A stretch of DNA of 64,000 bases, from NCBI GenBank assembly GCA_963805085.1, contig CAWDTA010000002.1, positions 288,001-352,000 of the forward strand, in the 5' to 3' direction. The position numbers and the translations under genes were made by a program. The DNA is from an uncultured Veillonellaceae bacterium. Its GTDB lineage: Bacteria; Bacillota; Negativicutes; JARBTT01. Below are positions 1,730-37,638 of this stretch, one piece after another; within the stretch, counting starts at the first letter, position 1, and each line of letters begins with the position of its first letter. The notes beneath the pieces were generated by a model. It did not search any database and was not told the DNA's origin. It was given only the letters and a program-made list of their open reading frames with translations.

Positions 1730-1846
1730 AAATAAATCTACCCCTCTCTTACACTTTGGGAACTTCTATTAGCTTCATTGTCTATTGTAAAACAGGCAGG
1801 CATTATGCCTGCCTTCAATAATAATTTTTCATTAGATTATCAATGT

Positions 1847-2875
1847 TTAATTCGTTCCAACTGACTTTTTGTGTTTTAAAATACCAAGTTTTCTTGCACC
1901 CAAAAAGACTACAAGCATAACAATGATAATAATGGCAATCGCAAAACCACTGCTTACTTCCGTTAAAGCGATCGCACTGAGTCCCAGGACACCGCTAATC
2001 ACATACATGAGTAGTACCGCTTGTTTTTGCGTAAAGCCTAAATCAAGCAAACGATGATGTAGATGTCCTCTGTCTGGTTTGAAAATTGGTTTACCGCTCA
2101 TATAACGTCTAACAATCGCAAACGTAGTATCTAAGATCGGTAATCCCAATGCAAAAATTGGTACAATCAGAGCAACCGTTGCTGCCGATTTAACCGCACC
2201 AATAACCGAAATACCAGCCAGCATAAAACCTAAAAACATACTACCAGTATCCCCCATAAATATTTTCGCGGGATTAAAATTATACTGTAAAAAGCCAAGT
2301 GCCCCACCAGCAATTGCTGCCGTTAACACAGCTATTAGTATGTAATTTTGTTGCAACGCTACTAACAGAATGGTTATCGAAGCAATCGTAGAAACACCAG
2401 CTGCAAGTCCATCAAGTCCATCGATCAAATTAACCGTATTTGTCAGACCGACAATCCAAAATAGTGTGATTGGAATAGCTAAGTATTCTAAATAAATCAT
2501 ATCACCAAACGGGTCACTCACCCAGTCAATACGGATGTCAAAAAGCACCAGTACTAACGCAGCCAAAATTTGCCCCGCCAACTTTACCTTTGCCGGCAAA
2601 TTTTTTAAATCATCAATAACTCCTACAATTAAAATAATTGTACCACCGATTAATAATCCTACAATCTCAGTAGTTAAATCAACCGTAAAAAAAACTGCTA
2701 CCATAAAGGCAACATATATAGCAAGACCACCCATTCTAGGAATAGGAGCAGTATGCACTTTGCGTTCATCAGGAGCATCCATCGCTCCGGCTTTCTTGGC
2801 CAAAGAAATAATTTTCGGCGTCAAAACATACGCTACCACGAGCGCAATCAAAAACGACAAAATATAATCTGGCAT
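1847..2875 (-). CDS. tagO: Undecaprenyl-phosphate GlcNAc-1-phosphate transferase (MraY/WecA/TagO family)
   Basis: NLIDGLDGLA, NFNPAKIFMGDTGS, HLHHRL motifs; ATG at 2875 follows AAGGGG RBS. Confidence 0.88.
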   Translation of the reverse strand: MPDYILSFLIALVVAYVLTPKIISLAKKAGAMDAPDERKVHTAPIPRMGGLAIYVAFMVAVFFTVDLTTEIVGLLIGGTIILIVGVIDDLKNLPAKVKLAGQILAALVLVLFDIRIDWVSDPFGDMIYLEYLAIPITLFWIVGLTNTVNLIDGLDGLAAGVSTIASITILLVALQQNYILIAVLTAAIAGGALGFLQYNFNPAKIFMGDTGSMFLGFMLAGISVIGAVKSAATVALIVPIFALGLPILDTTFAIVRRYMSGKPIFKPDRGHLHHRLLDLGFTQKQAVLLMYVISGVLGLSAIALTEVSSGFAIAIIIIVMLVVFLGARKLGILKHKKSVGTN

Positions 2876-2970
2876 AAAATTAAGCACCCCTTTTCTATGC
2901 AACAAGACAATTGTACCTCACCAAAACTAGACTGTCAATGAAATAACGCGCTACCAAACCTTGTCATTTA

Positions 2971-3630
2971 CTACTTGCAATACCCTTTACGCTTTAATTT
3001 ACACACATGCAGCTTCACCAACGCATCGATATCCACCTCATACCGTTGCGTTAATAAATACATCATCGTAAAGCAACATTGCGCTACATCCAAGAGTTCC
3101 TCGGCACTGCCAATCACGACTTCTTTTTCCTTTAATGTATCATTTTCTCCCGATGCACCAGCTTTCTTCCCTAAATATTGCGTCAATTCACCAAGTTCTT
3201 CTTGGATTTTACACACCGTCGTAAGCAGAGTTACTTCTGGTAAATCTAGCTTCGGCAATGCCAAATATTTATAATTACCTTCTGTATAAATACGATATTG
3301 ATTATTTTTATTAAAATGATACCCTTTATTTTCAAGTTTATTCAAATGACGTTGAATTAACTCAGCGATCTCAATACTATAACTTTCTTCCATTACAAAA
3401 ATCATCGTAACACAAGTTTGCGCTACATCCAAGAGTTCTCCATTCACCTCAGCCAAGGCCCCTTGCGCCACAGATAATTCAGCAATTTCAGAGCCTTTGA
3501 GTCGCTCATAAGGCAAAAAGGTCAACGTTGCCCTAGCAAGTTCCCCTGCTTCTTCAATAATCTTCAGCAACGTTGAATTAAGTGTTGGCGCCAACTGGTT
3601 CAACTTTGGTAAAGCAACTACTTCAAACAT
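2971..3630 (-). CDS. MazG-like nucleotide pyrophosphohydrolase with two tandem domains
   Basis: Motif KIxEExGEL...ELLDVAQ occurs twice in 219 aa. Confidence 0.7.
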   Translation of the reverse strand: MFEVVALPKLNQLAPTLNSTLLKIIEEAGELARATLTFLPYERLKGSEIAELSVAQGALAEVNGELLDVAQTCVTMIFVMEESYSIEIAELIQRHLNKLENKGYHFNKNNQYRIYTEGNYKYLALPKLDLPEVTLLTTVCKIQEELGELTQYLGKKAGASGENDTLKEKEVVIGSAEELLDVAQCCFTMMYLLTQRYEVDIDALVKLHVCKLKRKGYCK

Positions 3631-14876: not shown

Positions 14877-15140
14877 TTACTTATTTTTTAGTTTATCTAA
14901 TGCTTCCTTAATCTTTAATGCAACCTTTATTGATTCCCACGAGCTAGTTACGATATAGAACGTACCCAGAATCCTAACCCATGAGTTAGTAGCTATCGCT
15001 ATTTCATTTGTCCACTCCGTGATCTGCTTTATCATTGCCTCACTTAACAGTGTATCTGTTTCACTTTCAATTAAGTTAATTATCTCATTTGCTACAGCAT
15101 CTGTATCAGCATCCGTTGCTATTATCTTTGAATCACTCAT
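14877..15140 (-). CDS. Small hypothetical protein with TNSWV motif (similar to 62116..62385)
   Basis: ORF with GGAG RBS; shares EI..(A/T)TNS-WV(R/K) with the protein at 62 kb. Confidence 0.55.
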   Translation of the reverse strand: MSDSKIIATDADTDAVANEIINLIESETDTLLSEAMIKQITEWTNEIAIATNSWVRILGTFYIVTSSWESIKVALKIKEALDKLKNK

Positions 15141-15154
15141 ATCGAACACTCCAA

Positions 15155-15403
15155 TTATTTATTTAGTAATGGAAGAAGAAGATATAGATTAAATAACCCC
15201 GTTACTGCAGATGTTGCGATAAACGCTGCTACAGGTGCTGATACACCATGATTAACAAGTAATTGCTTGCTAAAACCAATTGCTTTATCTTTTAAATCAT
15301 CCGTACACTCCGTCGTAGATTCTTCCGTTGATTGATGTTCTAATATAATAGCCTTTAACTCCCCCTTAGTCATTGCCTCCAATTGTTCCGCAGTATACTT
15401 CAT
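15155..15403 (-). CDS. Small hypothetical membrane protein
   Basis: AAAAGGAGG RBS, 82 aa, hydrophobic C-terminus. Confidence 0.55.
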   Translation of the reverse strand: MKYTAEQLEAMTKGELKAIILEHQSTEESTTECTDDLKDKAIGFSKQLLVNHGVSAPVAAFIATSAVTGLFNLYLLLPLLNK

Positions 15404-15524
15404 TCGTAAGCCTCCTTTTTAAGTCTCAACATAAATAAATCATAGTATACCTTATTATATATACTACGATAGCAAGGGGTTACGTTGTTTTGCTATTGGC
15501 TTGATTTAGGAAAGGATTTAAAAT

Positions 15525-15556
15525 ATTTCAATCCATGCATCCGTGAAGGGTGCAAC
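15525..15556 (-). repeat. Type I-C-like CRISPR repeat one spacer length beyond the I-B array end
   Basis: Minus strand GTTGCACCCTTCACGGATGCATGGATTGAAAT, 32 nt, internal hairpin and ATTGAAAT 3' handle typical of I-C repeats. Confidence 0.75.
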
Positions 15557-15782
15557 TAAGTGAGGGGAGACAACGCCAAAAAGCATTTCTTTACATTTCA
15601 TTATGAGTCAATTCGAAGTCATACCCCCATTGAATAATAAGCCCATTAGAAAACTATTTACATTTCATTATGAGTCAATTCGAAGTTGTTGTATTGGATT
15701 ATGCCAATATACAGAATATACCAGATTTACATTTCATTATGAGTCAATTCGAGGTCATAATTAATCAGTATCCTTATATAAT

Positions 15783-16030
15783 AAATTTAGGTTAATAAAG
15801 GCAACCTATAATCCTTTATTAACTGACTAATTATACAAACTAATTGTATAATTGGTTTATAGGTAGAGTGATGTCGTTTGTCTCCTTGAGATTTTATCTC
15901 GTTATCGAAAGACTGACGCCTCTGTCTGTCTAACTGTTTACGAATAAGTTGGATGTTGGCTTTTATTTGAAGCACTTCGTATCTGCGATAAGTCGGTAAC
16001 GTTATTCAGATTAGAGGAACCTATCTAAAT
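15783..16030 (+). ncRNA. Putative IS110 bridge RNA (boundaries approximate)
   Basis: Structured 5' non-coding region with guide-like segments matching target (GTCTCCT, GAAAG) and donor junction (GTTGG.CT, ATAAG). Confidence 0.65.
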
Positions 16031-16051
16031 AAATTCTTTTAGGTGATTTTT

Positions 16052-17227
16052 ATGTTCTATCTCGGTATTGATATTGGTAAAAATACACATGTTGCTTCTC
16101 TCATGGACGAGAACGGTAAAACTGTCTTCAAAGCCTTTAGCTTCCCCAATTCAACTGATGGCGGTAACAATCTTTTAGATAAAATTGCTTCAGTTTCTTC
16201 TGTTGAAATCGGTATGGAAGCTACGGGCCATTATTGGCTTTCTCTTTACTCTTTTCTTGTTGAACACGGTTTCGTTGTCCATGTTATCAATCCGATCCAA
16301 ACAGACGGCTGGCGCAAAGGTACTGAAATCAGAAAACGTAAAACAGATATCATTGATTCTGTTTTAATTGCCGACTTCATCCGCTATGGTAAGTTCCTGG
16401 AAACATCCTTAGCAGATGAAAATATGCTTTCTTTACGCAATCTTTCCCGCTTTAGAAATTATCTTGTCAGTTCTATCGGCGATTTAAAAAGAAAAGCCAT
16501 CTGCGTTTTAGACCAAATTTTCCCTGAGTATCAAACTGCATTTTCTAACGTCTTTGGAAAAACTTCTAAGGAAATTCTTTTGCAGTTAAGCTCTCCTACC
16601 GAGTTTGAAAATGTTACGTCTACTCAGCTTGAAGATATTCTCTCTCAAATTACTTTCAAACGGTTTGCAGCTAAGAAAATCAACAGTATATCTACTTTGG
16701 CTAAAACTTCTTTTGGTATTACTTTCTACTTGGAAAGTCTAACTTTTAAACTTAAACTTCTGATTGAGCAAATTAATTTTATTGAAAAACAAATTATAGA
16801 TGTTGAAGCTCAAATAAAAGTGCTGCTAGAAAAAATTAATTCACCTATTACTACAGTCCCCGGAATAGGGGTGGTAAATGCCGCCACTATTCTTGGTGAA
16901 ATCGGTGACATTAACAAATTCAGCAATCCCTCTAAACTTGTTGCTTATGCTGGCATTGATGCGTCTGTTTGTCAATCTGGTGAATACCAAAGTACGACCA
17001 ATAAAATGAGTAAACGAGGTTCGCCCTATTTGAGAAAGGCGTTGTTTCAATCTGCCTTGATTGCAGCCACTCACGATCCTGTATTTAAGGCTTATTACCA
17101 AAAGAAACGTTCTGAAGGTAAACATCATTTAACTTGCCTTGGAGCAGTTGCCCGTAAACTTTGTTATACGATTCATGCTATTCTAAAAAATAACTGTGCT
17201 TACGAGGTACAGTTGCCTAGAGAGTAA
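16052..17227 (+). CDS. IS110-family DEDD recombinase/transposase
   Basis: LGIDIGK, MEATGHYW, KTDIIDS RuvC-like motifs; C-terminal YAGIDA..QSG and KRGSPYLR. Confidence 0.95.
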   Translation: MFYLGIDIGKNTHVASLMDENGKTVFKAFSFPNSTDGGNNLLDKIASVSSVEIGMEATGHYWLSLYSFLVEHGFVVHVINPIQTDGWRKGTEIRKRKTDIIDSVLIADFIRYGKFLETSLADENMLSLRNLSRFRNYLVSSIGDLKRKAICVLDQIFPEYQTAFSNVFGKTSKEILLQLSSPTEFENVTSTQLEDILSQITFKRFAAKKINSISTLAKTSFGITFYLESLTFKLKLLIEQINFIEKQIIDVEAQIKVLLEKINSPITTVPGIGVVNAATILGEIGDINKFSNPSKLVAYAGIDASVCQSGEYQSTTNKMSKRGSPYLRKALFQSALIAATHDPVFKAYYQKKRSEGKHHLTCLGAVARKLCYTIHAILKNNCAYEVQLPRE

Positions 17228-20200
17228 TACAACTTTCAAGTATTTCTTTTTCGGCCTGCAAAAACAGGTCTATTTGTTTTGCATAAATATTGATGTTACT
17301 TCCCTAATTTTTATCGATTTTCTCTATTGACTTTTTATAGTTGGTCTTTCTCACATATAGCCCACATTTACATTTCATTATGAGTCAATTCGAAGTGGTG
17401 AAAAAGAAGAGAATGACCTCTATCCCGGTACTATTTACATTTCATTATGAGTCAATTCGAAGTGGCGCACGGAGCGCACACCATACTTGAAAGAACCAAA
17501 TTTACATTTCATTATGAGTCAATTCGAAGTGAGGTAATACTCCAGTGAAGCAGTAGTAACTGGTACATTTACATTTCATTATGAGTCAATTCGAAGTATC
17601 GTTAACATCTACTAAGCCTTCATTTATTATCCAATTTACATTTCATTATGAGTCAATTCGAAGTTGAAAGAGCTTGGGCTGTTTGCGACAGATCCAGACG
17701 AATTTACATTTCATTATGAGTCAATTCGAAGTGTGTCAAAGTTGTTTTTAGTTATAATAATCACTCCTATTTACATTTCATTATGAGTCAATTCGAAGTT
17801 TTGTTTCCTTTTATCGAAATATGTATTAATTGGGTAAATTTACATTTCATTATGAGTCAATTCGAAGTTGCTGATCTAGTTCATCCCAAACTCTTTGAGT
17901 ATCATTTACATTTCATTATGAGTCAATTCGAAGTTATCTTTTCCACCGCTAAATGCTACATAGTAACCCTCATTTACATTTCATTATGAGTCAATTCGAA
18001 GTGTCCTTTGAGTAACACGAGCGATAACCTTTGAGTAATTTACATTTCATTATGAGTCAATTCGAAGTGCTATACTTAAACAAAAATGAGAGGTGATTTA
18101 ATTAATTTACATTTCATTATGAGTCAATTCGAAGTCGGTGCAGTGACATGGCGCATACGTGATTTGAAAAGATTTACATTTCATTATGAGTCAATTCGAA
18201 GTAATGCGAGTATTCAGCCTACTATTACGATTAGACCTATTTACATTTCATTATGAGTCAATTCGAAGTGCTACTGATGCTCATGCAAAAGCAGAAGCTA
18301 CAAGATTTACATTTCATTATGAGTCAATTCGAAGTCGGTAGCCGCAATAGCGTTAATATGTTCCCTTCGGCAATTTACATTTCATTATGAGTCAATTCGA
18401 AGTCAGGTTTAATAAAATGTCCTAATTGCGGTAAAACCAATTTACATTTCATTATGAGTCAATTCGAAGTTTACGTATTCGACTGGCGCTAATGGATCTT
18501 TATCTACATTTACATTTCATTATGAGTCAATTCGAAGTTCCGCCAATCGGTTTGCATAATCCCGAATAATCATATTTACATTTCATTATGAGTCAATTCG
18601 AAGTTTCTTTTGCTTCTCTGACTTGCACCTGGCAAAACCTATTTACATTTCATTATGAGTCAATTCGAAGTAAGGCTGGAAACACGATTGAAGTAACCGA
18701 CTATGTATCATTTACATTTCATTATGAGTCAATTCGAAGTATTGTATGGAGATTCAACGACGGGAACGATTTATTTATTTACATTTCATTATGAGTCAAT
18801 TCGAAGTAGGAATGGCAACTGGCTTGGAGGGATTGTTCCCTAATTTACATTTCATTATGAGTCAATTCGAAGTGTCTAAATCTAAATTACCTAGCATTTT
18901 CTTTCCTCCATTTACATTTCATTATGAGTCAATTCGAAGTCTGCTGGAGCAACAAGAACAATGGCTGTTGGGCAAATTTACATTTCATTATGAGTCAATT
19001 CGAAGTCTTCTGCTGTAGGTAGTGACCAAGGCTTTTGTTCTATATTTACATTTCATTATGAGTCAATTCGAAGTTATGCAATCAAATACATCACCGCAAG
19101 CGGAATCCTCATTTACATTTCATTATGAGTCAATTCGAAGTGCCATGACCGACCCATTAAACAAGACTGCTTATGCTGATTTACATTTCATTATGAGTCA
19201 ATTCGAAGTGTACTGGTTCTCTAGCACCTAAATCAACCATAGCTCATTTACATTTCATTATGAGTCAATTCGAAGTAGGGTCAAAACGAATGAATCTGAG
19301 AACACGTTGGTCATTTACATTTCATTATGAGTCAATTCGAAGTTAGACAAGGTAAGGACGCTATGCAACAAGTATCGAAATTTACATTTCATTATGAGTC
19401 AATTCGAAGTTGGCGGCATAAATGCCCAAATTGCGGAGAGTTTCACATTTACATTTCATTATGAGTCAATTCGAAGTTTGTCTTTCTCTGATTGCCCATT
19501 CAGGCAATTTAATATTTACATTTCATTATGAGTCAATTCGAAGTGGGGAATTTGTCTTAGCACTTGATTGTAGTATTGCGATTTACATTTCATTATGAGT
19601 CAATTCGAAGTACTAGGGTTAATTGTAAATTCGACATTATTCATTGATTTACATTTCATTATGAGTCAATTCGAAGTCTGGTCAACAGTAAATACAAGGA
19701 TTGATATTCCAGCATTTACATTTCATTATGAGTCAATTCGAAGTCTTTAGCGCATTACACCGATTTACAAGGGGTGTCGAATTTACATTTCATTATGAGT
19801 CAATTCGAAGTCAAACAAGGGGAAACAATTGCACAATATTTTCACAAATTTACATTTCATTATGAGTCAATTCGAAGTCAAATAATTCACTAATTTTAAT
19901 GGTTTTTCGTTCTTCATTTACATTTCATTATGAGTCAATTCGAAGTTTTATTGATGCGCGAGATATTGCAAAGTTTGCTTTATTTACATTTCATTATGAG
20001 TCAATTCGAAGTGGCTGGATGGAGTATCATACCCCACGGTAGTTCCAGATTTACATTTCATTATGAGTCAATTCGAAGTTTTATGTTGGACAACCGATTG
20101 GTGGTACAGGTATTCATTTACATTTCATTATGAGTCAATTCGAAGTAGCACCGACTATTATTATATCTGATGAGTTTCACCAATTTACATTTCATTATGA

Positions 20201-23200
20201 GTCAATTCGAAGTGGATTTAAAAACTACTAAATCAATCATAGAATTTGCAATTTACATTTCATTATGAGTCAATTCGAAGTAGGACTTGTCCAATCCTTG
20301 GGAGGGATAATAGTAGGATTTACATTTCATTATGAGTCAATTCGAAGTTCAACTACTTCTCCAGCAAACTCTTTGATTTTTTCATTTACATTTCATTATG
20401 AGTCAATTCGAAGTTCGTTATCTAATGTAACCTTCGCTTTTGACTCCTTGATTTACATTTCATTATGAGTCAATTCGAAGTATATGGTGGTGGCGGTGGT
20501 GGTGTAGCAGCTTTAAAATTTACATTTCATTATGAGTCAATTCGAAGTCAGATGTGATCCTGGTTATTATCATTTTACCAAAGAAATTTACATTTCATTA
20601 TGAGTCAATTCGAAGTTTAACCGATGAAACCATAAAACACTATCGAATTGGCATTTACATTTCATTATGAGTCAATTCGAAGTAAGATAAGAAAAATAAT
20701 CCACCGCTACGATATCTATATTTACATTTCATTATGAGTCAATTCGAAGTACCGACCCCACAGAAATCCCAGGATTCCACATTATCATTTACATTTCATT
20801 ATGAGTCAATTCGAAGTTATTTCTTTATTTTTGCTTGTATTCCCTTCGTTACTTATTTACATTTCATTATGAGTCAATTCGAAGTCCGCTTGTAATCCAT
20901 TCATTGTATTTTTGTTCGAGCATTTACATTTCATTATGAGTCAATTCGAAGTTTTACATTGCTATAGCCAACAGCATAATAAGCACCAATTTACATTTCA
21001 TTATGAGTCAATTCGAAGTCTATACCCCCGAAGCCCAAAACCTAATCCTAAACCAATTTACATTTCATTATGAGTCAATTCGAAGTCTGAGGAAGGGAAC
21101 ACAGTTAAATGCAAGTTAGATTGATTTACATTTCATTATGAGTCAATTCGAAGTCTTGTAATCACTCGCTGCTTTTGTTTTTCTGATTTCATTTACATTT
21201 CATTATGAGTCAATTCGAAGTAATATTCAAAAGATACTAAAGCAATCAGATGAAATCATTTACATTTCATTATGAGTCAATTCGAAGTTTTTTCGATTGG
21301 TGGTTCGCCGCGAACGATACGGACATTTACATTTCATTATGAGTCAATTCGAAGTTAATGTCACACTCAAAAACGCAACAATATTATCCGTATTTACATT
21401 TCATTATGAGTCAATTCGAAGTTTAAAAAAGGCAACCACTTTCTAATCTCACTAACCAAATTTACATTTCATTATGAGTCAATTCGAAGTGGGTGATTCG
21501 GTTGTAATCAATGATGAAGGGCGTCCATTTACATTTCATTATGAGTCAATTCGAAGTACATCAATAAACGTCAATTTAAACATATTTAATAAACATTTAC
21601 ATTTCATTATGAGTCAATTCGAAGTGAAAGAAGGTGAAGCGATGTTAAGAGAGCAGAAAACATTTACATTTCATTATGAGTCAATTCGAAGTCAAGTGCA
21701 TTTTTCCATACGGATTTGTTTTCTACATTTACATTTCATTATGAGTCAATTCGAAGTATTTGGGATGTTGTTTAATTCCACGTTAGAAAGTACATTTACA
21801 TTTCATTATGAGTCAATTCGAAGTTGAAGATTGTTTGAAAGGCATGAAAAAGATTGATGAATTTACATTTCATTATGAGTCAATTCGAAGTTCCTGTATT
21901 GCTACTGCCTGACTGTACTCCGGTATATTTACATTTCATTATGAGTCAATTCGAAGTTCAACCGTTAAGTTGTCGCTTGGATGCAAGTTAGTAACATTTA
22001 CATTTCATTATGAGTCAATTCGAAGTTACATCTTTTAAAACTTCCTCTATATCTCTTTTCAAATTTACATTTCATTATGAGTCAATTCGAAGTGTAGTTA
22101 CTGCGTTTAAGTATCATATCGACGTAAGATTTACATTTCATTATGAGTCAATTCGAAGTTGTCACTCGTAGCAATGCCTTACTATCTGTTGCAACATTTA
22201 CATTTCATTATGAGTCAATTCGAAGTCCTACGAAAGGAGCTGAATAAATGAGTGAAATAAATTTACATTTCATTATGAGTCAATTCGAAGTATTTGGAAC
22301 AAGTGAAGATAGATTTTTGCACATAGATTTACATTTCATTATGAGTCAATTCGAAGTCCAGGCTGCTTTTCTTATGACCGCCTCATTAAGCTCATTTACA
22401 TTTCATTATGAGTCAATTCGAAGTCTCCGTATCTAGACAATGTCCTAGGCTGATAATTAATTTACATTTCATTATGAGTCAATTCGAAGTACCGTCACGT
22501 TGTACAGGTGCTAGTCCTACTTTTTCATTTACATTTCATTATGAGTCAATTCGAAGTGTACGTGCTGTATAACCCAAGTATTGATAATACACATTTACAT
22601 TTCATTATGAGTCAATTCGAAGTGCGTCTTTACCGTTTCTTTGTTTGGCTTGGTTCCATATTTACATTTCATTATGAGTCAATTCGAAGTATGGTCAACG
22701 CGAAGTATTTAAACTATTGATAATCGAATTTACATTTCATTATGAGTCAATTCGAAGTCCCGATGCCATCCATATCGGCTAACTGTTGATACTATTTACA
22801 TTTCATTATGAGTCAATTCGAAGTAATTAAAGAATCACAGAAAATTCCAAGCGTTTCTCATTTACATTTCATTATGAGTCAATTCGAAGTTATTGTTGTT
22901 GTTTATATTAGTATCATTAGCTTTCACATTTACATTTCATTATGAGTCAATTCGAAGTTTCCGAAAAAGATGCAGTGGCGCAAGCAGTATATACAATTTA
23001 CATTTCATTATGAGTCAATTCGAAGTCCTATCAAAATCAGTTAAATCAATCAATGCATGATCATTTACATTTCATTATGAGTCAATTCGAAGTATACAGA
23101 AATTATTCATTTGCGCCGTCACTTTAACCGCATTTACATTTCATTATGAGTCAATTCGAAGTTAAAATGCTTTGTGAAAGCTCCTTAATTTCTACTTGAT

Positions 23201-25259
23201 TTACATTTCATTATGAGTCAATTCGAAGTAAGTGACCATATAGAAGCAAACCCGACTATCTCACATTTACATTTCATTATGAGTCAATTCGAAGTCATCG
23301 GTTTTCACCTTACGCTTGATTGTAATATTTATATTTACATTTCATTATGAGTCAATTCGAAGTAACTTAACAATAATATAGTCTAATTTACATAATACAA
23401 ATTTACATTTCATTATGAGTCAATTCGAAGTTTGTAATTTTTTCCCCATATAATCACCTCTTTAAGGCATTTACATTTCATTATGAGTCAATTCGAAGTT
23501 GCATCGGTATTAACAACTAAATTCCTTCCAACTAAATTTACATTTCATTATGAGTCAATTCGAAGTACAATGCAAAAGATGATGTATTCTGTGTCATTAC
23601 TAGATTTACATTTCATTATGAGTCAATTCGAAGTGATACAAGTGTAATCATCTTTTCTAAATCCATAACAATTTACATTTCATTATGAGTCAATTCGAAG
23701 TTCAGTTTCTTTGATCTTACTGGTAAGGGTTGCAACTTCATTTACATTTCATTATGAGTCAATTCGAAGTGGTCCACCTTTAGGCAATAAAAACGCACTT
23801 GGTAATAAATTTACATTTCATTATGAGTCAATTCGAAGTCCTTACCAGTAAAAGCACAAAAAGCAATATTTTCTCATTTACATTTCATTATGAGTCAATT
23901 CGAAGTAAAATCTTCGTAACATTCGCGGTCATCGGCACACACATTTACATTTCATTATGAGTCAATTCGAAGTGTTTAGGATATTCAGCCGATGAACTAG
24001 TTTCTATATTTACATTTCATTATGAGTCAATTCGAAGTTTGATAAAGAAAAATTCAAGGAATCGGTTGAACGCGGATTTACATTTCATTATGAGTCAATT
24101 CGAAGTCAGGTGGAACAAAGTGCATGAATCGGATATTATCCACATTTACATTTCATTATGAGTCAATTCGAAGTAGTAGTTGCAGGCATTCCGCGTTGTC
24201 GCATAACCAGATTTACATTTCATTATGAGTCAATTCGAAGTTTGAATACCAGTATTACCAGTAGCACCTTGTATTCCTATTTACATTTCATTATGAGTCA
24301 ATTCGAAGTGTATGTTTGGATTAGCTCAAGGTGTTTCGAATAAAACATTTACATTTCATTATGAGTCAATTCGAAGTGCAATTATCACAGGGATTTCACA
24401 AGCAAATAAATTATCATTTACATTTCATTATGAGTCAATTCGAAGTTTATCTTGTGTACCGTCTCGGACTTCGTAATACTCATTTACATTTCATTATGAG
24501 TCAATTCGAAGTCCAACAGGAAATGTTATTGCGTAGCCACCAGCCTTATTTACATTTCATTATGAGTCAATTCGAAGTGCAACCCATACTTGCGAAGTAT
24601 TCACTAAATTTAAATTTACATTTCATTATGAGTCAATTCGAAGTTTTATAATGTGTGTCGACAAATTAATACTTTTATCAATTTACATTTCATTATGAGT
24701 CAATTCGAAGTGCCCCAATCTTCAGCGATGAAACCTGTGTCTCCATCATTTACATTTCATTATGAGTCAATTCGAAGTTCTGATAGCCAAGATAATATTT
24801 AAAGCCCTTCTGAAATTTACATTTCATTATGAGTCAATTCGAAGTTCGATTAAATTGATTGTTGAAGAACTCGGACCTAAATTTACATTTCATTATGAGT
24901 CAATTCGAAGTTGAAAAACATCATAAACCCCACGTTCACGTGTATTAATTTACATTTCATTATGAGTCAATTCGAAGTTCCAGGCTACCGTAGCTTTGGT
25001 AATAGCCTGTAGCGTATTCATTTACATTTCATTATGAGTCAATTCGAAGTAACGGCTTTCGCGATTGTAGAAATGTGTTTTCCGCCATTTACATTTCATT
25101 ATGAGTCAATTCGAAGTTTTACTTGCCCATAACTATAGTTATAAACGCTAATATATAAGTGAGCCACTAAAGCATAAAATGCTCACGAAAAAATGAGCCA
25201 CCTTAAATAAAATAACCTTTAAAATAGACTTAATGAAGTTTATTTTGGAGGGATAAAAG

Positions 25260-26693
25260 GTGGTAATCACATTGGAAGACTATGCTGAAATACGCAGGCT
25301 TTTTAATTCCGGTATCAGCAAACGCGCCATCGCCAGAAAGCTTGGTATATCCAGAAATACAGTAGATAAATATTGCCAAGGCGATACGGTTCCGTGGAAC
25401 AGAAAAATATACACTCGTCAGTCTTCAATCATCAGTGATGAAGTAATGGATTTCATTCGCCAATGCTTAGAAGATGATGAACGCGAAGGCATTCGTAAAC
25501 AGAAACATACCGCCAAGCGAATATTTGATCGTCTAGTTGATGAATGTAACTTTACCGGCGGTGAAAGCACTGTTCGGCGAACTGTCAATCAGCTAAAAGT
25601 GCAGGTGCAAAAGCCTTTTATTCCCCTAGAATTTGCTCCTGGTGAGGCACTTCAAATTGATTGGGGTATTGCTAAAATATATTTAAATGGGCACAAAATG
25701 GACATAAATTTGTTTTGTGCTAGACTCTGTTCCAGTGATGCGCCTAGCGTTTTTGCTTTTGAAAGGCAAAATGAAGAAAGTTTTCTTGAAGCTTTGGTAC
25801 GTACCTTCCAGTATTTTGGCGGAATTGCCAGACGTGTATTCTTTGATAATGCAAAAGTAGCTGTAAAAGAAGGATTTGGCTCACGTGCTATTAAACAAGC
25901 CCGGTATGCAGCTCTTGCAGCGCATTATGGATTTGAAACTGTTTTTTGCAATCCAGCGGAAGGGCACGAAAAAGGTTTAGTTGAAGGACTAGTCGGCTGG
26001 GCTAGGCGCAACATCTTAGTGCCCATTCCAAAAGTTGAAAGCCTTGGAGAATTAGATGCTCTGCTCTTAGAGCGGTGTAATACATACCTGAATCACACAG
26101 TTAGAGGCAAAACGTCCAATGTTGGAAAGTTGCTTGCATTTGAAAAGAATGCGCTGCTGAAAATGCCAAGTTATGTATTTGATACAAGCCGCAGTATTAC
26201 TACAAATGTAGATAGTTATTGTACTGTTCGTTTTGACACGAATAACTATTCTGTACCAATCTCCCATTGCGGTCACGAAGTGGCGGTAAAAGGTTATGGT
26301 ACAAAAGTTGTAATCTACTACCACAATGCAGTGATTGCCAAACACAACCGCTGTTATGGCAAGAAACAAACAATTTATGAACTAGCTCATTATCTTCCTC
26401 TTCTGGAGAGAAGACCACGTTCTATCTTAAATGCAAAACCAGTAAGACATGCTTTACCACAGGATATATTGGAATGGTTAGCTAGTTTACCAGTAAAAGA
26501 AATTATGAAAGCATTAAATCTTTGTGTTGAGCTTGGCGTAAATGCGATTGTAGACGCCAAACGCCAAGGGATACCGCTTGATGCTGTATGCACTAAAAGA
26601 GAACCAGCAACTACGATCATTGATAAAATCACCGTGAAACCAACAGATTTATCATTGTATGATCGTTTGTTAAGAACAGAGGCTGCCTTATGA
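25260..26693 (+). CDS. istA: IS21 transposase
   Basis: N-terminal HTH, PGEALQIDWG, FDNAK, HEKGLVE DDE motifs. Confidence 0.95.
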   Translation: MVITLEDYAEIRRLFNSGISKRAIARKLGISRNTVDKYCQGDTVPWNRKIYTRQSSIISDEVMDFIRQCLEDDEREGIRKQKHTAKRIFDRLVDECNFTGGESTVRRTVNQLKVQVQKPFIPLEFAPGEALQIDWGIAKIYLNGHKMDINLFCARLCSSDAPSVFAFERQNEESFLEALVRTFQYFGGIARRVFFDNAKVAVKEGFGSRAIKQARYAALAAHYGFETVFCNPAEGHEKGLVEGLVGWARRNILVPIPKVESLGELDALLLERCNTYLNHTVRGKTSNVGKLLAFEKNALLKMPSYVFDTSRSITTNVDSYCTVRFDTNNYSVPISHCGHEVAVKGYGTKVVIYYHNAVIAKHNRCYGKKQTIYELAHYLPLLERRPRSILNAKPVRHALPQDILEWLASLPVKEIMKALNLCVELGVNAIVDAKRQGIPLDAVCTKREPATTIIDKITVKPTDLSLYDRLLRTEAAL

Positions 26694-27433
26694 ATAGTAC
26701 AATTCATGAGAGCATTAAACTATATGCCAAGCTATTAAAATTGCCCAGTTTTACGCAATATCAAGATGTGATTCGTCAGCTAAAACCCAATATGGGATTA
26801 GATGAAATGCTCTTGGAACTTATGAAAAAAGAATACCATTCACGGCAAGACAACCAATTAAAAAGGCGAATTCATACCGCGCATTTTCCTGTAACCAAAA
26901 CATTGGAAGAACTGAATATGTCTTGCTTCGAAAACATAAAACCGATATTTGTTCAGCAGTTGGCATCCTGTGACTTTATTAAAAAACGAAGAAATATCAT
27001 AATGATTGGACCGCCTGGAACCGGTAAAACTCATCTGGCAATCGGTCTGGGGATGAAAGCCTGTGCATGTGGTTTTCGCGTGATGTTTCGTAGCGCTGCG
27101 ACGATCTCCACTGAACTTTGTGAAGCCAAAGATGCCTACAAACTATCTAAATTAGAAAAGACTATTGAAAAAACAGATTTACTCATACTTGATGAACTAT
27201 CCTATCTAAGCTTTAACCGCCACCAATCTGATCTACTATTTAAGGTCGTTTCAGAGCGCTCTGAGCGAGCTAGTATCATAGTTACCACAAACCTAGAGTT
27301 TTCACGTTGGACGGAGATGTTCGAAAATGAAACAATGGTAGCGGCCCTGGTTGACCGGCTTACATTTCGATCACATTTATTGGATATGAACGGTTCCTCG
27401 TACAGAGTAAATCATGCTATTGCTAACGATTAG
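26690..27433 (+). CDS. istB: IS21 helper AAA+ ATPase
   Basis: GPPGTGKT Walker A, LLILDE Walker B, TTNL, ALVDRL, GSSYR. Confidence 0.95.
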   Translation: MNSTIHESIKLYAKLLKLPSFTQYQDVIRQLKPNMGLDEMLLELMKKEYHSRQDNQLKRRIHTAHFPVTKTLEELNMSCFENIKPIFVQQLASCDFIKKRRNIIMIGPPGTGKTHLAIGLGMKACACGFRVMFRSAATISTELCEAKDAYKLSKLEKTIEKTDLLILDELSYLSFNRHQSDLLFKVVSERSERASIIVTTNLEFSRWTEMFENETMVAALVDRLTFRSHLLDMNGSSYRVNHAIAND

Positions 27434-30045
27434 GTGGCTCAAATATTCATGAGCACAAGTGGTTTAAAATTTCATGAGCGAGTGGCTCACTTTTTCATTG
27501 ACGTTTATACTATAGTCTTAAAAATAAAGCATTTACATTTCATTATGAGTCAATTCGAAGTTTTAACGCTTGATTCAGAACAAGAAAGTTACTATAACAT
27601 TTACATTTCATTATGAGTCAATTCGAAGTCAAATTGGACGTAGTTTGACGCAAGTATTAGATACATTTACATTTCATTATGAGTCAATTCGAAGTCAATG
27701 ATTAATGTTTGCCATTTGTGTATTTCAGGGTAATTTACATTTCATTATGAGTCAATTCGAAGTGCCTGCACCTGGATTAGAACCATTCATAACAAACTCA
27801 TTTACATTTCATTATGAGTCAATTCGAAGTTCACAGCTGGAGTTGCAGCAAATCCACCGTTGCTAATTTACATTTCATTATGAGTCAATTCGAAGTTTAA
27901 TAATATTCTTCATATAGGTTTCCCCTTTTCTAATTTACATTTCATTATGAGTCAATTCGAAGTCGTATATTTTAATGTCGTTCCAAGTATCTTTGCTGCA
28001 TTTACATTTCATTATGAGTCAATTCGAAGTTTGAAAATAGAAACATTACTTCTATTGAGTTTAAAAAATTTACATTTCATTATGAGTCAATTCGAAGTGC
28101 CAATATACACCATCAAGCTGACCTAAGATGCCGACATTTACATTTCATTATGAGTCAATTCGAAGTGTTGCTATTGCAGTAAAACAATATGTAATTCGCA
28201 AATTTACATTTCATTATGAGTCAATTCGAAGTTGAATACAGCAAGAGCACAGTTTCGTGATATTTATAAATTTACATTTCATTATGAGTCAATTCGAAGT
28301 GTCGATGGCCATATTCCATCAGGACACGACATTCTTCATTTACATTTCATTATGAGTCAATTCGAAGTTATGATAGGTGAAGCTATTGTAATTAGTCCTC
28401 AGAAATTTACATTTCATTATGAGTCAATTCGAAGTCGATGGCATTTTGTTTTGTGGTGCTAGTCGCGTACTGATTTACATTTCATTATGAGTCAATTCGA
28501 AGTATACAATCAACTATATTATCAGCGCATTGATACATTAATTTACATTTCATTATGAGTCAATTCGAAGTGCTGACAGCCAACGACTGTGTAATGTGCC
28601 ATCAAAAATTTACATTTCATTATGAGTCAATTCGAAGTGATATATATTTCTGCCAAGCACAAGACATTATATCCATTTACATTTCATTATGAGTCAATTC
28701 GAAGTTCTATATTTTGCAAGTATAATACCGCCATAGAATAAATTTACATTTCATTATGAGTCAATTCGAAGTCGTATGGGAAGATATTGTCGAGATTGCA
28801 AAAGGTACATTTACATTTCATTATGAGTCAATTCGAAGTTGCCGCGCTCGTTTCTTTTGTATTGTAAACACGCCCATTTACATTTCATTATGAGTCAATT
28901 CGAAGTGACATCCGCTCTTGATACTTTGATATCAACATCCTCATTTACATTTCATTATGAGTCAATTCGAAGTGAAACAATAAAAAAATCTATATCAGTG
29001 AATGATACAAATTTACATTTCATTATGAGTCAATTCGAAGTTTGAGAACCCCAGAAGAGCGTGCAGGAATATTGAATATTTACATTTCATTATGAGTCAA
29101 TTCGAAGTACGTACATATTGTTAATTAAAAGAGAAAATCAACCATTTACATTTCATTATGAGTCAATTCGAAGTTTGAACTGCGGTAATAACGGAATTAT
29201 AGATATCTTGATTTACATTTCATTATGAGTCAATTCGAAGTGTTTGAGTATTCGGAGCTGTAAGCATCCGAGATAAATTTACATTTCATTATGAGTCAAT
29301 TCGAAGTCTAATTGTGACTACTACGTCTACCACGTCATTTAAATTTACATTTCATTATGAGTCAATTCGAAGTATTACTTCGCCCGCAAGAAACAGACTC
29401 TGTTATTAAATTTACATTTCATTATGAGTCAATTCGAAGTCGGGCAAGCAAAGCCAATACCTTTATGGGCTGGCAAATTTACATTTCATTATGAGTCAAT
29501 TCGAAGTAAAGACACTATTTGTTATGGCTCTTATCCTATAGACATTTACATTTCATTATGAGTCAATTCGAAGTACAGTATTTCGCTGAATAGTATGTTA
29601 AGCGCTGCTATATTTACATTTCATTATGAGTCAATTCGAAGTGCTGGTGCAGTGATCTTACCAATGAATGAACATTCATTTACATTTCATTATGAGTCAA
29701 TTCGAAGTGTGTTTCTTCGGGGTCATAACCACCAGACAATCTACATTTACATTTCATTATGAGTCAATTCGAAGTATATCCGTTGTACCATAAACCGTAT
29801 AAGGTGAATAAATTTACATTTCATTATGAGTCAATTCGAAGTAGATAAAAGAAAAATGAAAGCGGGGCGGAATTATGAATTTACATTTCATTATGAGTCA
29901 ATTCGAAGTTTGGCGTAGCTGTCTGGAACGCATCTTGGGTAAATAAATTTACATTTCATTATGAGTCAATTCGAAGTTCCGGGAAATCGAATTGATTACC
30001 ATGTGATTACAAACATTTACATTTCATTATGAGTCAATTCGAAGT

Positions 30046-30521: not shown

Positions 30522-31514
30522 TCACCACCAAATCCTAAAAGCCTTATATGTATCAGCGCCCATCACATGTTTAATTAGTTTGTATACTTCCAAACGAATC
30601 AAGTGATTGTAGGAAACTTCACGATTTAAGCTTCTATGTTTAATACTTGTCTTCAATTTAGCATCCAATGCTTCCATGATTTTTTTCGCAACAGAATCTT
30701 TCATGCGAATACAATCTACATCTTTGTCAAAATCATTTTCATCAATAATCTTTTTATTTAGCAATGAAAAAATTAAACGATCTGCGAGCAACGGTTTAAA
30801 AATTTCCGCAACATCCAATGCCAAAGAAAAGCGTTTTACCGACGGTTCATGCAAATAGCTAATTGTTGGATTTGCCTGCGTTTTGTAAATTTCACTTAAT
30901 ACCTTTGTATAAATAATTGAATTAACAAAAGAAATCAAGGTATTGATCATATTATCTGGTGGTCTTTTCGTCCGTTTTTCAAAATCAATTTCTACATCAA
31001 TAATCGTGTCCCATGCACTATAATATATTTTTCTAATATTTCCCTCTATCCCCATAAGTTCTTGTACGTCTTTACAATAAGGAATATGCGTACTTAATAC
31101 TTTTATCTCATCCATATACGAAGATAAATCTTTTCCTCGTGCATTATAGTAGCGCAAATTTCGATAGATATTATCATAAGCACCGGATATAAATTCTCGC
31201 GCAATTTCCATTCTTTTTTCGTTGTCGGTATAATGCTCAACCTGTTTTACTAATAGTGAACCCGATACATGTTTTTCCCTCGGGCAAAAACTTCCGGTAT
31301 AAAATTCATAATAATTAAAGAAATGTACCATTACACCATTTTGCGCCAAAAAATCAAGCAATTTTGTATTTAACGTCATTTCTGAAAAAATGTAAATATC
31401 CTTTACACGCTCTATCGGAATATCCTTATTCATTCCATCCTCACGACATAGCTGCAATGAATTATCTTTACGTTTGATGTGTCCATTAGAAAAAACATAA
31501 TAAGATTGTTTCAT
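30522..31514 (-). CDS. cas1: CRISPR-associated endonuclease Cas1 (I-B)
   Basis: ELMGIEG, RPPDNMINTLISF, SYLHEP, LALDVAEIFKP. Confidence 0.96.
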   Translation of the reverse strand: MKQSYYVFSNGHIKRKDNSLQLCREDGMNKDIPIERVKDIYIFSEMTLNTKLLDFLAQNGVMVHFFNYYEFYTGSFCPREKHVSGSLLVKQVEHYTDNEKRMEIAREFISGAYDNIYRNLRYYNARGKDLSSYMDEIKVLSTHIPYCKDVQELMGIEGNIRKIYYSAWDTIIDVEIDFEKRTKRPPDNMINTLISFVNSIIYTKVLSEIYKTQANPTISYLHEPSVKRFSLALDVAEIFKPLLADRLIFSLLNKKIIDENDFDKDVDCIRMKDSVAKKIMEALDAKLKTSIKHRSLNREVSYNHLIRLEVYKLIKHVMGADTYKAFRIWW

Positions 31515-31539
31515 GTAAGCTGCCTCATTTCAAGATATT

Positions 31540-32028
31540 TTAGATATAACAAAATTCATAGTATGCACATGATTTACATGCAGGTTTATCAATGATCTGC
31601 GGTAAATTTGCTTCTGCTAAAATTTCTTTTATCAATTTCAAGTTAGTTTCTACTGTTTCCATGTCCTCTTCTGTCAAAAAAACTTCTTCCGTTAAATGCT
31701 CCTTCGGAACAGCCAGCATCCCCTTAATATCTTTCAAACCGTGTTTATGTAAAACATAGAGATAATATTTAATCTGATTAATCGCCATCTGTTTTTCTTT
31801 TTTACTTTTCTTCACTTCATAAACAATACCATTGTGAATATAGTCAATGTTAATACAATCATCTACCAGAATATGTTTTCGTTCGCGACTATAAGAAGTC
31901 TCATCAATGATTTTGCCAATCTGCACATGTTCATTCTCATCTTCTAAGCTAATATCATGTGCATATAACCACATTTTGCGTGTACATAAAAAATAGTAAG
32001 AATAAAGTACTCCTGTTACGTTTTTCAT
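31540..32028 (-). CDS. cas4: CRISPR-associated exonuclease Cas4
   Basis: CTRKMWL, EVKKS, QIKYY, CKSCAYYEFC. Confidence 0.94.
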   Translation of the reverse strand: MKNVTGVLYSYYFLCTRKMWLYAHDISLEDENEHVQIGKIIDETSYSRERKHILVDDCINIDYIHNGIVYEVKKSKKEKQMAINQIKYYLYVLHKHGLKDIKGMLAVPKEHLTEEVFLTEEDMETVETNLKLIKEILAEANLPQIIDKPACKSCAYYEFCYI

Positions 32029-32037
32029 GCTCTCACC

Positions 32038-34311
32038 TCAACCAAAATTCTCTGATTCATCTTCTTTTTCCAAACATAAACCACTTCCAGATAAATCATC
32101 AAAGTCATATACCCTTGTGCAGCGATGAATTCCCAGCCATTTAATTGCTTCGATTGGGTATTGATCAATTGCGCCTCTTCCTTTTTTAGATTTTAATAAA
32201 TTTGCATTTAGAGATATTGTATATTGCAAAAGATCATTTTCTGCTTTAATCCGAGTTTTAATATCATATTGTTTTTTATCCTTTATAATTTTTATATAAT
32301 CCTGTACGCTGTCAGTTTGATAAAATTTTTCTGGCAACACAGTAATGCTTTGAATATTTCTAAATTGCTGATGCGCCGTTTCAGCATCTATCGTTGATGG
32401 TGGCAAATCTTGCAAGGTTTTTAAGCACTCTTCAATTTTCTTATAATAGCTTGTCTCTTTCAATCTTGCTGTATCATATACTGCATTTATATATTCAAAT
32501 TTTTCTGTTTCTAAAAAATAGTTATTATTATATTTTTGCAAGTCATCTACTGAGTATTGATAAATATCAACATACTGGTAAACATTATTCGCACCACAGC
32601 CATTTTTTGTATTATAAATATACACATTCGGAGTTAGCCCATCATAATTGCGTTTACGATAGCAACGCCCCATTCTTTGCAATAAGCTATCTGCTGGACA
32701 CATTTCCGTAAATAACACATCAAAATCAATATCCAAACTTGCTTCTACAATTTGCGTACTAATCCAAATTCCCGTTTCATCGCTATTAGAAAACTTCATA
32801 ATTTCCTCTTCTAATAACTTTCTATCTTGACGAATAAATCTACTATGTAAGAGTTTTACATACTCATTTTGATCTTTTAATTTATCATATACACTTTGCG
32901 CTTTCCCCACCGTATTACATAAAACTAACACCTTTTTATTTTGTGCTTCATTAATGATTTTTTCATAATCAAAGTCTTCGGCCTCAATGAATTGAATCTT
33001 ATGACGTTTATCATACTCTCCTCTAAAAGGGCTTTCTGGTATCCGAAAATCAATATTCTGCTGGACTAAAAAATGTCTTAGTACAGGTGGGAAAGTTGCC
33101 GTAATAATGGCGAATCTTCCTCCCAGCTGCGTAATAATTTTAAGTCCATAAATAATGCACGCCAAAATTTCTGCTGAATACATTTGGATTTCATCAATAA
33201 TTACTTTTGAGTATTTTAATGTCGCTGGTACGATTTCACTTCCCATTGCTTTAAACACAAACCAAAATAATTGATCGACTGTACAAATCGTTAAAGGGTA
33301 TGCCAATAGCTTTGCTTTTTCTTTTCTAATCAATGGATCTTCTATTGTAAAATCCTCTTGATCCGCTTCCTGCTTTGCAAAATAATATGCCAATAAATCG
33401 GAATGAAGTAAAGTAATTTTATCTTCATCATAATGATATTGATGATCTTCCCGCCCACTGATCCGTTCATAAATTGCATTAATCGACACTTTTAACGGCA
33501 GCGTGTAGAAGGCCTTGCTGCCATCGAGCCAAAATAAAGCAGCTTCCGTTTTTCCACTGCCAGTTGCAGCTAATACAACTAAATTTTCATCTTTGCGATG
33601 CATCATGTAGTCTTGCACTGGACGAATCACTTTCCATTGCTCTTGAATAACCTTTGTTAAAACGCCCGCCGTCAAAGGCTCCATTTCGACTTGGTCAAGA
33701 TTCCTTCCACTTGCTGCATAATCAAGCTTATTCAGCATGCCTTTGACTACAATGTATTTCAGCCATTTATCATGCGCTCCTTCAGTCGTCATATTCGCCT
33801 TATTTCTTTGATTATTGGTGAATGCAGTAATTAGATATCCTAAATCTAAATAATCGGTGTTTTTACAAAACGTCTGCTTTGTGTCATACGCATAAGAATC
33901 AGGTAAATACCTGTCGATATACCTTCCAAAAGCCCCTTCTGTATAACTGTCAGTTCTTGTATGATGATTATAAATCGTAGTCACTACGATCTCTATATCC
34001 TCGCCATAAATCTTCTCTAACTCTTCCATGTTCATATATGCCGCGCTTAGAAACCCATGTGGTATTTCTTCTTCATCAGCTTTTGGAACAGCACCTTCGT
34101 ACTTGCGCCCTATCGCTTTATGTATTTTATACTGAAACAATGCATTGAGTTTGCCTAAATCATGATAAAAAGCCGCTAAATAAATGAATTCTTTCTCCTG
34201 CTTACTAAATTTATCACCATATGACTTCAAAAACTTTTCCCATAAAAGCAGCAACTCCTCGGTATGTTCTTTTACGGTTTGAATCGGATTAGATTTTGCT
34301 ATATATGCCAT
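32038..34311 (-). CDS. cas3: Cas3 HD nuclease/helicase
   Basis: YHDLGK HD domain, ATGSGKT, IIDEIQ, STQIVEASLDIDFD, QRMGRCYR. Confidence 0.96.
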   Translation of the reverse strand: MAYIAKSNPIQTVKEHTEELLLLWEKFLKSYGDKFSKQEKEFIYLAAFYHDLGKLNALFQYKIHKAIGRKYEGAVPKADEEEIPHGFLSAAYMNMEELEKIYGEDIEIVVTTIYNHHTRTDSYTEGAFGRYIDRYLPDSYAYDTKQTFCKNTDYLDLGYLITAFTNNQRNKANMTTEGAHDKWLKYIVVKGMLNKLDYAASGRNLDQVEMEPLTAGVLTKVIQEQWKVIRPVQDYMMHRKDENLVVLAATGSGKTEAALFWLDGSKAFYTLPLKVSINAIYERISGREDHQYHYDEDKITLLHSDLLAYYFAKQEADQEDFTIEDPLIRKEKAKLLAYPLTICTVDQLFWFVFKAMGSEIVPATLKYSKVIIDEIQMYSAEILACIIYGLKIITQLGGRFAIITATFPPVLRHFLVQQNIDFRIPESPFRGEYDKRHKIQFIEAEDFDYEKIINEAQNKKVLVLCNTVGKAQSVYDKLKDQNEYVKLLHSRFIRQDRKLLEEEIMKFSNSDETGIWISTQIVEASLDIDFDVLFTEMCPADSLLQRMGRCYRKRNYDGLTPNVYIYNTKNGCGANNVYQYVDIYQYSVDDLQKYNNNYFLETEKFEYINAVYDTARLKETSYYKKIEECLKTLQDLPPSTIDAETAHQQFRNIQSITVLPEKFYQTDSVQDYIKIIKDKKQYDIKTRIKAENDLLQYTISLNANLLKSKKGRGAIDQYPIEAIKWLGIHRCTRVYDFDDLSGSGLCLEKEDESENFG

Positions 34312-34373
34312 CCTGTACGCCTCCATGATAAAAGAAGGACAAGTTCCTATGAAATTAAGAACTTGTCCTTACT

Positions 34374-35949
<1,576 letters not shown>

Positions 35950-35951
35950 TT

Positions 35952-37628: not shown

Positions 37629-37638
37629 CCCACCTCCT

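Follow-up and report, generated by a model that had tools for sequence, protein, structure and literature searches.

An insertion sequence (IS) of the IS110 family was found inside a spacer of a CRISPR array of predicted type I-B, within a 64,000-nucleotide (nt) stretch of DNA from an uncultured Veillonellaceae bacterium (assembly GCA_963805085.1, contig CAWDTA010000002.1, positions 288,001 to 352,000; hereafter the window, in whose forward-strand numbering coordinates are given). Comparison with its relatives makes it very probable that this is an intact IS110-group element whose left end encodes a bridge RNA, that the target-binding loop of this RNA is written for ...TCTCCT/TTC (the slash marks where the right flank begins), which is the complement of a Shine-Dalgarno (SD) sequence together with the A-rich 5' side of that sequence, that strands are exchanged at a CT core, and that this copy landed on a spacer site differing from its guide by one letter. 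Mechanism and anatomy appear to be those of the published IS110/IS621 bridge system, each of whose testable defining features was recovered from the sequences.

The element and its recombinase

The element is about 1.57 kb long and occupies 15775-17347, including the second CT core at 17346-17347; it and all of its features described below lie on the plus strand. Its left junction reads ...CAGTATC-CT/TATATAAT... and its right junction ...TAGTTGGT-CT/TTCTCAC... (that is, AGTTGGT-CT/TTC). There is thus a CT core on both sides, with neither a target duplication nor terminal inverted repeats, the two ends being unlike each other by eye, and the same boundaries are common to 76 homologous left ends and 72 right ends.

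The recombinase gene (16052-17227) encodes 391 amino acids (aa) from an ATG, and an alternative upstream GTG at 16043 is possible. The product has the N-terminal DEDD RuvC-like domain and the C-terminal transposase domain of the IS110 group, with Pfam matches to DEDD_Tnp_IS110 (PF01548, E 9.1e-45, residues 7-161) and Transposase_20 (PF02371, E 7.5e-26, residues 269-353). Remote homologues of known structure were the IS621 transposase (8wt6, E 3.9e-23) and ISCro4 (9t56, E 2.5e-21). In the IS621 alignment the acidic residues of the GID, EATG and TDxxD motifs and the serine of MSKxG, which I take to be the catalytic residues, are identical in the window's recombinase. As a separate observation on this gene, short pieces of unrelated contigs in the metagenome runs X1-X4 match only a 32-nt stretch of it (16551-16582) and have identical loose ends in three runs; a conserved motif that recurs in further IS110 genes may be responsible, or else a repeat.

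Relatives used for comparison

Relatives were collected by scanning at the protein level, with each species represented by a single genome, which gave 80 loci at 59-78% identity out of at least 562 relative-encoding stretches. Together with the two copies from the window's genome this made a set of 82 elements, 76 of which have their left end on the contig; the left end lies off the contig in L030, L034, L039, L040, L043 and L088, which were excluded. A further 13 of the 76 rows were dropped because the left flank was shorter than 12 nt or duplicated another row, and L079 because its flank resembles the right end of an element and not a target, leaving 62 unique insertion sites. Tests of ribosome-binding sites (RBSs) used 60 of these, L018 and L026 having flanks shorter than 100 nt. 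For structure, 67 distinct left ends were aligned and a consensus was computed with RNAalifold; guides were taken from the alignment columns and compared with flanks and element ends. When relatives were searched for by DNA, 5 of the 60 other genomes gave matches, all of them to pieces of the ends.

The clade is distributed over many Bacillota families, with one row labelled as a Betaproteobacteria metagenome-assembled genome (MAG); this relative (L082) is GC-rich and lies outside Bacillota by its label. The excluded L079 is a curiosity of its own: its left flank (~1215-1227) is unlike its own LTG (see below) and closes with ATAGTTGGTCT, the final 11 letters of an element's right end, the rest of which is missing; a remnant, a tandem relic and a donor-like landing are all conceivable.

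Fold of the predicted bridge RNA

The left end upstream of the recombinase gene comprises 277 nt and folds in the consensus into 28 base pairs in six helices, 20 of these pairs showing compensatory changes. The layout consists of a 5' stem-loop, a pair of stems around an internal loop with a hairpin, and a second pair of stems around another loop, i.e. the long non-coding left end with two internal-loop stem structures that is expected of the IS110 group. Across the alignment 97.5% of cells were paired, against 34.5-50.1% when the partners were slid by one to three columns, and the covariation score of 0.52 compares with 0.05-0.12 in the slid controls and was reached by none of 500 shuffles.

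The 5' stem-loop (15790-15806, GGT/ACC) is formed by helix 1 with three pairs, all of them compensatory, and 98.5% of cells paired. The putative target-binding loop (15865-15923) comprises outer stems, an internal loop and an inner hairpin at 15887-15901 (TGAGA/TCTCG); its helices 2-4 contribute 13 pairs, eight of which have changed on both sides, with at least 98.5% of cells paired. The putative donor-binding loop (15925-16010) is built from helices 5 and 6, with 12 pairs, nine of them changed on both sides. Scanning 15000-18000 against Rfam, with E values of up to 1 allowed, gave zero matches, so that the fold belongs to no curated RNA family at that threshold. An earlier reading of the window from its letters alone (the first-pass annotation) had proposed a two-loop bridge RNA around a CT core, and both fold and guide layout agree with the arrangement given for IS621 by Durrant et al. 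(2024; PMC11208160), where left target and core are read in sense, and core and right target in antisense.

Guide letters and their covariation

The left target guide (LTG) of the window occupies 15877-15886 (TTTGTCTCCT), and its last seven letters, GTCTCCT (15880-15886), match the target GTATCCT at six of seven positions. It is followed by the hairpin at 15887-15901 and then by the right target guide (RTG) GAAAG (15907-15911), the reverse complement of core and right target, CT-TTC, with a match of 5/5. The first-pass annotation had placed both guides here, the LTG as its last seven letters, with a hairpin between them, and the comparison with relatives bears the placement out.

Agreement between LTG and left flank was scored over the 62 sites, counting from the T of the core. 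At positions 1 to 10 the letters agreed in 60, 61, 61, 58, 55, 50, 37, 29, 26 and 7 sites, as compared with 60, 61, 61, 47.5, 41.2, 20.4, 17.9, 22, 24.5 and 5.9 when LTGs and flanks were shuffled against each other; the sum of 142 over positions 6-9 was attained in none of 2000 shuffles. Over the last seven letters the match was 7/7 at 25 natural sites, 6/7 at 28, 5/7 at five and lower at four. Together with the paired fold, this supplies the guide and target covariation test that had been proposed along with the first reading, and its outcome favours that reading.

At 53 of the 60 sites the RTG complement spells CT and the three flank letters next to it, and in the rare cases where RTGs have changed, the flanks have changed with them, in full in L021 and L082; the latter carries the RTG TGTAG and a right flank that correspondingly reads CT-ACA. 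A metagenome scan for near-identical copies, in which the initial 32 nt of the left end served as probe, led to one locus (L092), a more distant relative. It has the LTG CCCACCT opposite the target TCCACCT and is inserted in an apparent coding region, on the same strand and not at an RBS (1637-1814, minus strand view); it contributes to the covariation and supplies no additional site for the guide of the window's copy.

The donor side follows the same logic. The left donor guide (LDG, 15947-15954) reads AGTTGG(AT), in the same sense as the right end AGTTGG-T-CT, and its first six letters (15947-15952) covary with that end: AGTTGG occurs in both in 46 rows and AGTTAG in both in 25, so that 71 of 72 rows are concordant and one is discordant. 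The right donor guide (RDG) ATAAG (15988-15992) is the reverse complement of the core and the start of the left end, CT-TAT; here ATAAG goes with CTTAT in 25 rows and ACAAG with CTTGT in 50, giving 75 concordant rows out of 76 and one other. The RDG had been correctly identified in the first reading, which had put the LDG at 15955-15961 (GTTGGCT) and so missed it by 8 nt: that stretch is not conserved among the 67 aligned left ends (GTTGAC, GTCGAC and others), and RNAalifold called no pairing there, its arms looking complementary by eye. The letters of both loops thus covary with target flanks and element ends, as in the IS110 group, and all four guides of the predicted bridge RNA are legible and can be checked against dozens of independent insertions. 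In the proposed mechanism the donor loop (AGTTGG.., ATAAG) would hold the element's own junction, and the recombinase would swap strands at CT.

The interrupted spacer and the CRISPR array

The array extends over 15589-30045 on the minus strand with 157 repeats of 31 nt, and spacers of 34-38 nt fill 153 of its 156 intervals; with ~154 intact spacers it is unusually long. Its repeats bound 15756-17365, a 1610-nt interval that is one of two long ones and contains the element. The left spacer half (15756-15774, 19 nt) carries the left target ...CAGTATC and the core CT (15773-15774) and ends in GTATCCT, and the right half (17348-17365, 18 nt) begins with TTCTCAC, the right target being TTC. Rejoined with a single CT, the halves give a spacer of 37 nt, within the usual range of this array. 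The first-pass claim of an IS110 element inside a CRISPR spacer with the CT core at both junctions is therefore sustained.

This arrangement bears on the idea that the landing was a sequence-independent accident, or an assembly artefact, with a merely coincidental guide match. Such an origin would account for the one mismatch between guide and target and for the occurrence of just a single event of this kind in the window. The junction, however, fits the guides at 6/7 and 5/5 positions exactly at the CT core, the same guide rule is found in 62 independent sites, the restored spacer has a normal length and the contig is continuous across both junctions, all of which makes an accident or artefact very improbable.

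The orientation of the array follows from its neighbourhood. The minus strand of 30522-38436 carries open reading frames (ORFs) with Cas1, Cas3, Cas8b-like (Cas_CXXC_CXXC) and Cas6 domains, and between these are ORFs with the sizes of cas4, cas5 and cas7; cas5, cas7, cas4 and cas2 were assigned from ORF size and order alone and are accordingly putative. Gene order and the Cas8b-like match point to a type I-B system, in which regularly spaced repeats adjoin cas genes in the order cas6-cas8b-cas7-cas5-cas3-cas4-cas1. As the cas operon points toward the array, the leader should be at the right end, next to cas1, and transcription of the array should follow the minus strand. Variant repeats number just two (15589 and 15725), both at the left end, which fits the left end being the old trailer end. 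Counted from there, the IS110 element sits in the third spacer, and it has cost the array one destroyed spacer and at most two old spacers that are cut off.

An alternative route of entry, in which the CRISPR machinery or recombination between arrays brought the element in and its own recombinase did not, is suggested by its position between two repeats and by the presence of an unrelated IS21-family element in the same array. Against this, the IS110 element interrupts a spacer in its middle and does not sit at the junction with a repeat or the leader, the two halves of that spacer survive with a CT at each side, and the trailer end is far from the entry point of new spacers. I consider this route extremely improbable, even more so than a chance landing.

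Read on the minus strand, the restored spacer gives GAAAGGAT, then 11 nt, then ATG as the final triplet (AGGAT, 11 nt, ATG). The RBS-like letters plus ATG that had been noticed on this strand in the first reading are thus there as letters, and they are compatible with a phage RBS; entry of the element via a captured RBS is plausible. One viral contig (L091) was considered as a source of the spacer and rejected, its exact match to the left half continuing into letters unlike the right half and so being a chance 19-mer; the right half itself had zero matches in the viral contig search. The spacer at 22227-22260, which had been put forward as a further target, is one further carrier of CTCCTTTC (on the minus strand) among the intact spacers. 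The motif is therefore as predicted, but the window's LTG matches this spacer at only 5/7 letters, a level seen in 5 of 62 natural sites as against 53 of 62 with six or seven.

By its sequence, one copy landed on the one-mismatch site GTATCCT/TTC in a phage-derived spacer, the third oldest of the 157-repeat array. I propose that the gene starts of foreign DNA are among what spacers sample, whereby some spacers would occasionally carry the motif, and that the insertion persisted, presumably because a hit in an old spacer would be nearly free of cost for the cell. The CRISPR landing is then best seen as a by-product of the ordinary guide rule, and arrays could gather sequence-guided mobile elements simply since their spacers sample foreign gene starts.

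Target motif and gene starts

Across the 62 sites the target of the clade reads nnCTCCT/TTC, with C in 47, T in 52, C in 61, C in 61 and T in 62 of them, and TTC in 51 of 60 right flanks. Its other strand is GAA-AGGAG, which makes the target the complement of an SD sequence. The first-pass annotation had proposed that the programmed target is the complement of an RBS and that a logo built from homologues would find it beside start codons; the clade motif bears out the former, and 39 of 60 sites lie beside a start codon with an ORF.

A site was counted as an RBS if a start codon followed 3-13 nt past an AGGAG-like 5-mer and opened an ORF of at least 50 codons (at least 20 if it left the flank). 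By this measure the 39 positive sites compare with 487 of 5000 random positions in the window's genome and with 1 of 55 when the right flank was read rightwards. The other 21 sites failed, several of them having an ATG with a shorter ORF. The association with gene starts follows from the identity of the sequence that is sought: the element seeks a sequence and not the gene start itself. Since strands are exchanged where the SD begins on its 5' side, AGGAG and the start codon stay with the downstream gene, which loses everything upstream.

How strictly the motif is read can be gauged from a MAG with six copies that share one guide, TTGCCTCCT: only CCTCCT and TTC are common to all six targets, so that the outer letters of GTCTCCTTTC are soft and about nine letters of the target are firm. 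With about nine fixed letters and soft outer positions, the clade would allow guide tolerance to be measured on a natural and abundant target class, and for engineering its orthologues would offer bridge recombinases that are compact, of Gram-positive origin and equipped with clearly delimited loops for donor and target. Nine sites of the type GTnTCCTTTC occur in the window's genome.

A second copy in that genome, 83% identical (L002, G000:C1:297521-302099, element at 1501-3079), is located between a NarJ-like ORF and narI of the nitrate reductase operon, and this sister copy has landed on the genuine narI RBS. With its target, the LTG of this copy (CTCTCCT) agrees at 7/7. The insertion trims the last four codons and the stop of the narJ-like ORF and comes to stand between upstream transcription and two genes, narI and one for a flavodoxin, and narI keeps AGGAG, 8 nt upstream of its TTG start, beside the element.

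In DNA contigs of four public metagenome runs, a copy ~97% identical to that of the window was found as a separate 1581-nt contig spanning exactly 15772-17351, at a depth of 61.5 vs ~10 for the contigs leaving its right end. These show at least three different continuations after TTC(T), and on the opposite strand AGGAG-8 nt-ATG can be read in one left flank that is more distant. The coverage of the four runs does not extend to the array flanks, which carries no information, the runs being kept as contigs.

Several points weigh against the reading of this element as a bridge-RNA-guided one that seeks the SD complement. The evidence for it is wholly in silico; the window's LTG mismatches its own target once (C vs A, fifth from the core end); and the sole perfect site, GTCTCCTTTC, in the genome (contig C5, near 195136) is empty. 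No protospacer of the restored spacer was found in the window's own genome, allowing up to 7 mismatches, or in viral contigs. The two-state donor covariation could rest on few evolutionary events, given that kin share the two states and independent events are thus fewer than the row counts. A consensus scan of the left end found no promoter pointing outward to the target gene. Lastly, the 39/60 sites at RBSs are not clearly above the motif's own rate in the window's genome, where 49 of 95 CTCCTTTC sites pass. The earlier proposal that the element targets RBSs upstream of genes consequently stands as a description of where most copies are, the narI copy included, and falls short as a claim of preference beyond the motif.

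Likeness to the 16S rRNA 3' end

Eight places in the window's genome read ...GGATCACCTCCTTTC..., and the one that was checked is the 3' end of a full-length Rfam small subunit (SSU) rRNA match. The end of the host 16S rRNA, ...GGATCACCTCCTTT(C), is the same string as the target consensus of the clade, and the LTG TCACCTCCT of L036, L060 and L077 plus TTC spells the 16S tail letter for letter. The LTG would pair with the SD-bearing strand, as the ribosomal anti-SD does with mRNA. The 16S 3' ends (on contigs C1, C2, C3, C4 and C5, e.g. C2 near 1797564, locus L093) carry CACCTCCT/TTC, to which the window's element is matched by 5/7 LTG letters and the full RTG, and relatives with the LTG TCACCTCCT perfectly; none of the eight 16S 3' ends is interrupted.

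A broader reading, which I put forward tentatively and rate a little short of even, is that a Bacillota-wide IS110 clade has a target loop that mimics the 16S 3' tail and thereby reads the code of the ribosome. This would give it host-independent landing upstream of many genes with the SD spared, would make any SD-bearing DNA a target, such as phage-derived spacers or the 16S 3' end, and would turn old spacers into neutral safe harbours. A literature search found no statement of a bridge-RNA target loop that spells the anti-SD, although supplements beyond the accessible part of such papers, e.g. the target tables of PMC11208160, may hold one.

A related question is why, and not how, the elements land where they do. 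RBS targeting may be an adaptation, in that a loop mimicking the 16S tail offers a conserved, abundant landing code in any host of the Bacillota and lets the gene keep its SD, with less damage to the host or a coupling to gene starts. The identity of the target consensus with the host 16S 3' end, exact for the LTG and TTC of the three relatives named above, the spread of the clade over many Bacillota families and the AGGAG left with the gene at every CTCCT site are in favour of this. The failure of the RBS association to rise clearly beyond the motif rate, the 21 sites that miss an RBS, the L092 insertion in an apparent coding region and the lack of an outward promoter in the consensus scan speak against it. 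On balance I regard adaptation as possible and lean against it. The guide rule by itself would already provide a mechanistic account of why some IS110-family elements end at gene starts.

Predicted circle-junction promoter

Halves of a promoter are found at the two ends of the element, a -10 box TATAAT at the left end (15777-15782) and a -35 box TTGACT at the right end (17327-17332). When right and left ends were joined computationally, TTGACT-17-TATAAT was produced in 43 of 57 distinct elements, and the other 14 scored 10-11 of 12. In the integrated state, the -35 supplied by the flank scores no better than 3/6 in 47 of 63 cases. A sigma-70 promoter rebuilt across the circle junction is thus present in the computed junctions, and such a promoter has been published for the IS110/IS621 bridge system (PMC11208160). 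Following the IS621 model, the right and left ends would join after excision and the resulting TTGACT-17-TATAAT promoter would transcribe the bridge RNA.

Separately, a promoter-like site is found inside the left end at 15823-15852, just 5' of the target loop (CTGACT-18-TATAAT, 10/12). It is a consensus match, in a region whose count of such matches is not above that of shuffles, and its -10 block is conserved, with TGTATAAT or GAGATAAT in most aligned homologues when inspected by eye. Such a site could express both loops from an integrated copy without a circle junction.

Comparison with known systems

The window's element resembles IS621 in its homologous recombinase with DEDD and Tnp domains, in a left-end bridge RNA with 5' stem-loop, target loop and donor loop, in an LTG in sense and an RTG in antisense around CT, and in the promoter rebuilt across the circle junction. 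It differs in that the protein similarity is remote (two aligned stretches, 85.6 bits in total), in the length of the recombinase (391 aa vs 328 aa in the solved chain) and in the target: the natural targets of IS621 are repetitive extragenic palindromic (REP)-like repeats, whereas the natural target here is the SD complement. A further difference from IS621 is that the RTG of the window's element, with the core counted in, is 5 nt long.

IS900 of Mycobacterium avium subsp. paratuberculosis is said, going by the title of a 1997 report by Doran and colleagues, to target translation initiation signals, and it is likewise an IS110-family element at translation-initiation regions; insertion at SD and start regions was seen here at the 39 sites and for the second copy at the narI RBS. 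IS900 inserts in a single orientation, placing itself after the SD and before the start codon, whereas the window's clade crosses over on the 5' margin of the SD and thereby leaves AGGAG with the gene. The host phylum is another one, and the bridge-RNA explanation is not part of the IS900 work. IS900 also carries hed, a long antisense ORF that spans the element (PMC8141618) and borrows signals of the host, whereas the window's element contains just two antisense ORFs that reach 60 aa, at 15787-15975 (62 aa) and 16841-17128 (95 aa), neither of which spans it. A third element, CazIS110-1 of Caloranaerobacter azorensis, is an IS110 element of a Clostridia host that is active with a bridge RNA (10.1101/2025.10.25.684509); the likeness is by description only, and the accessible part of that source makes no mention of RBS, Shine-Dalgarno or CRISPR-array targets.

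Further features of the element and array

A terminator-like hairpin was picked up by consensus scan at 17253-17270, 3' of the recombinase gene. The array has a second interrupted spacer at 25118-27530 (2413 nt), where the insert is a gene pair of IS21 type. Its transposase, of 477 aa, shows a C-terminal Mu-transposase domain, helix-turn-helix (HTH) domains and a weak rve match, and is followed by a 247-aa IstB ATPase (E 5.5e-60).

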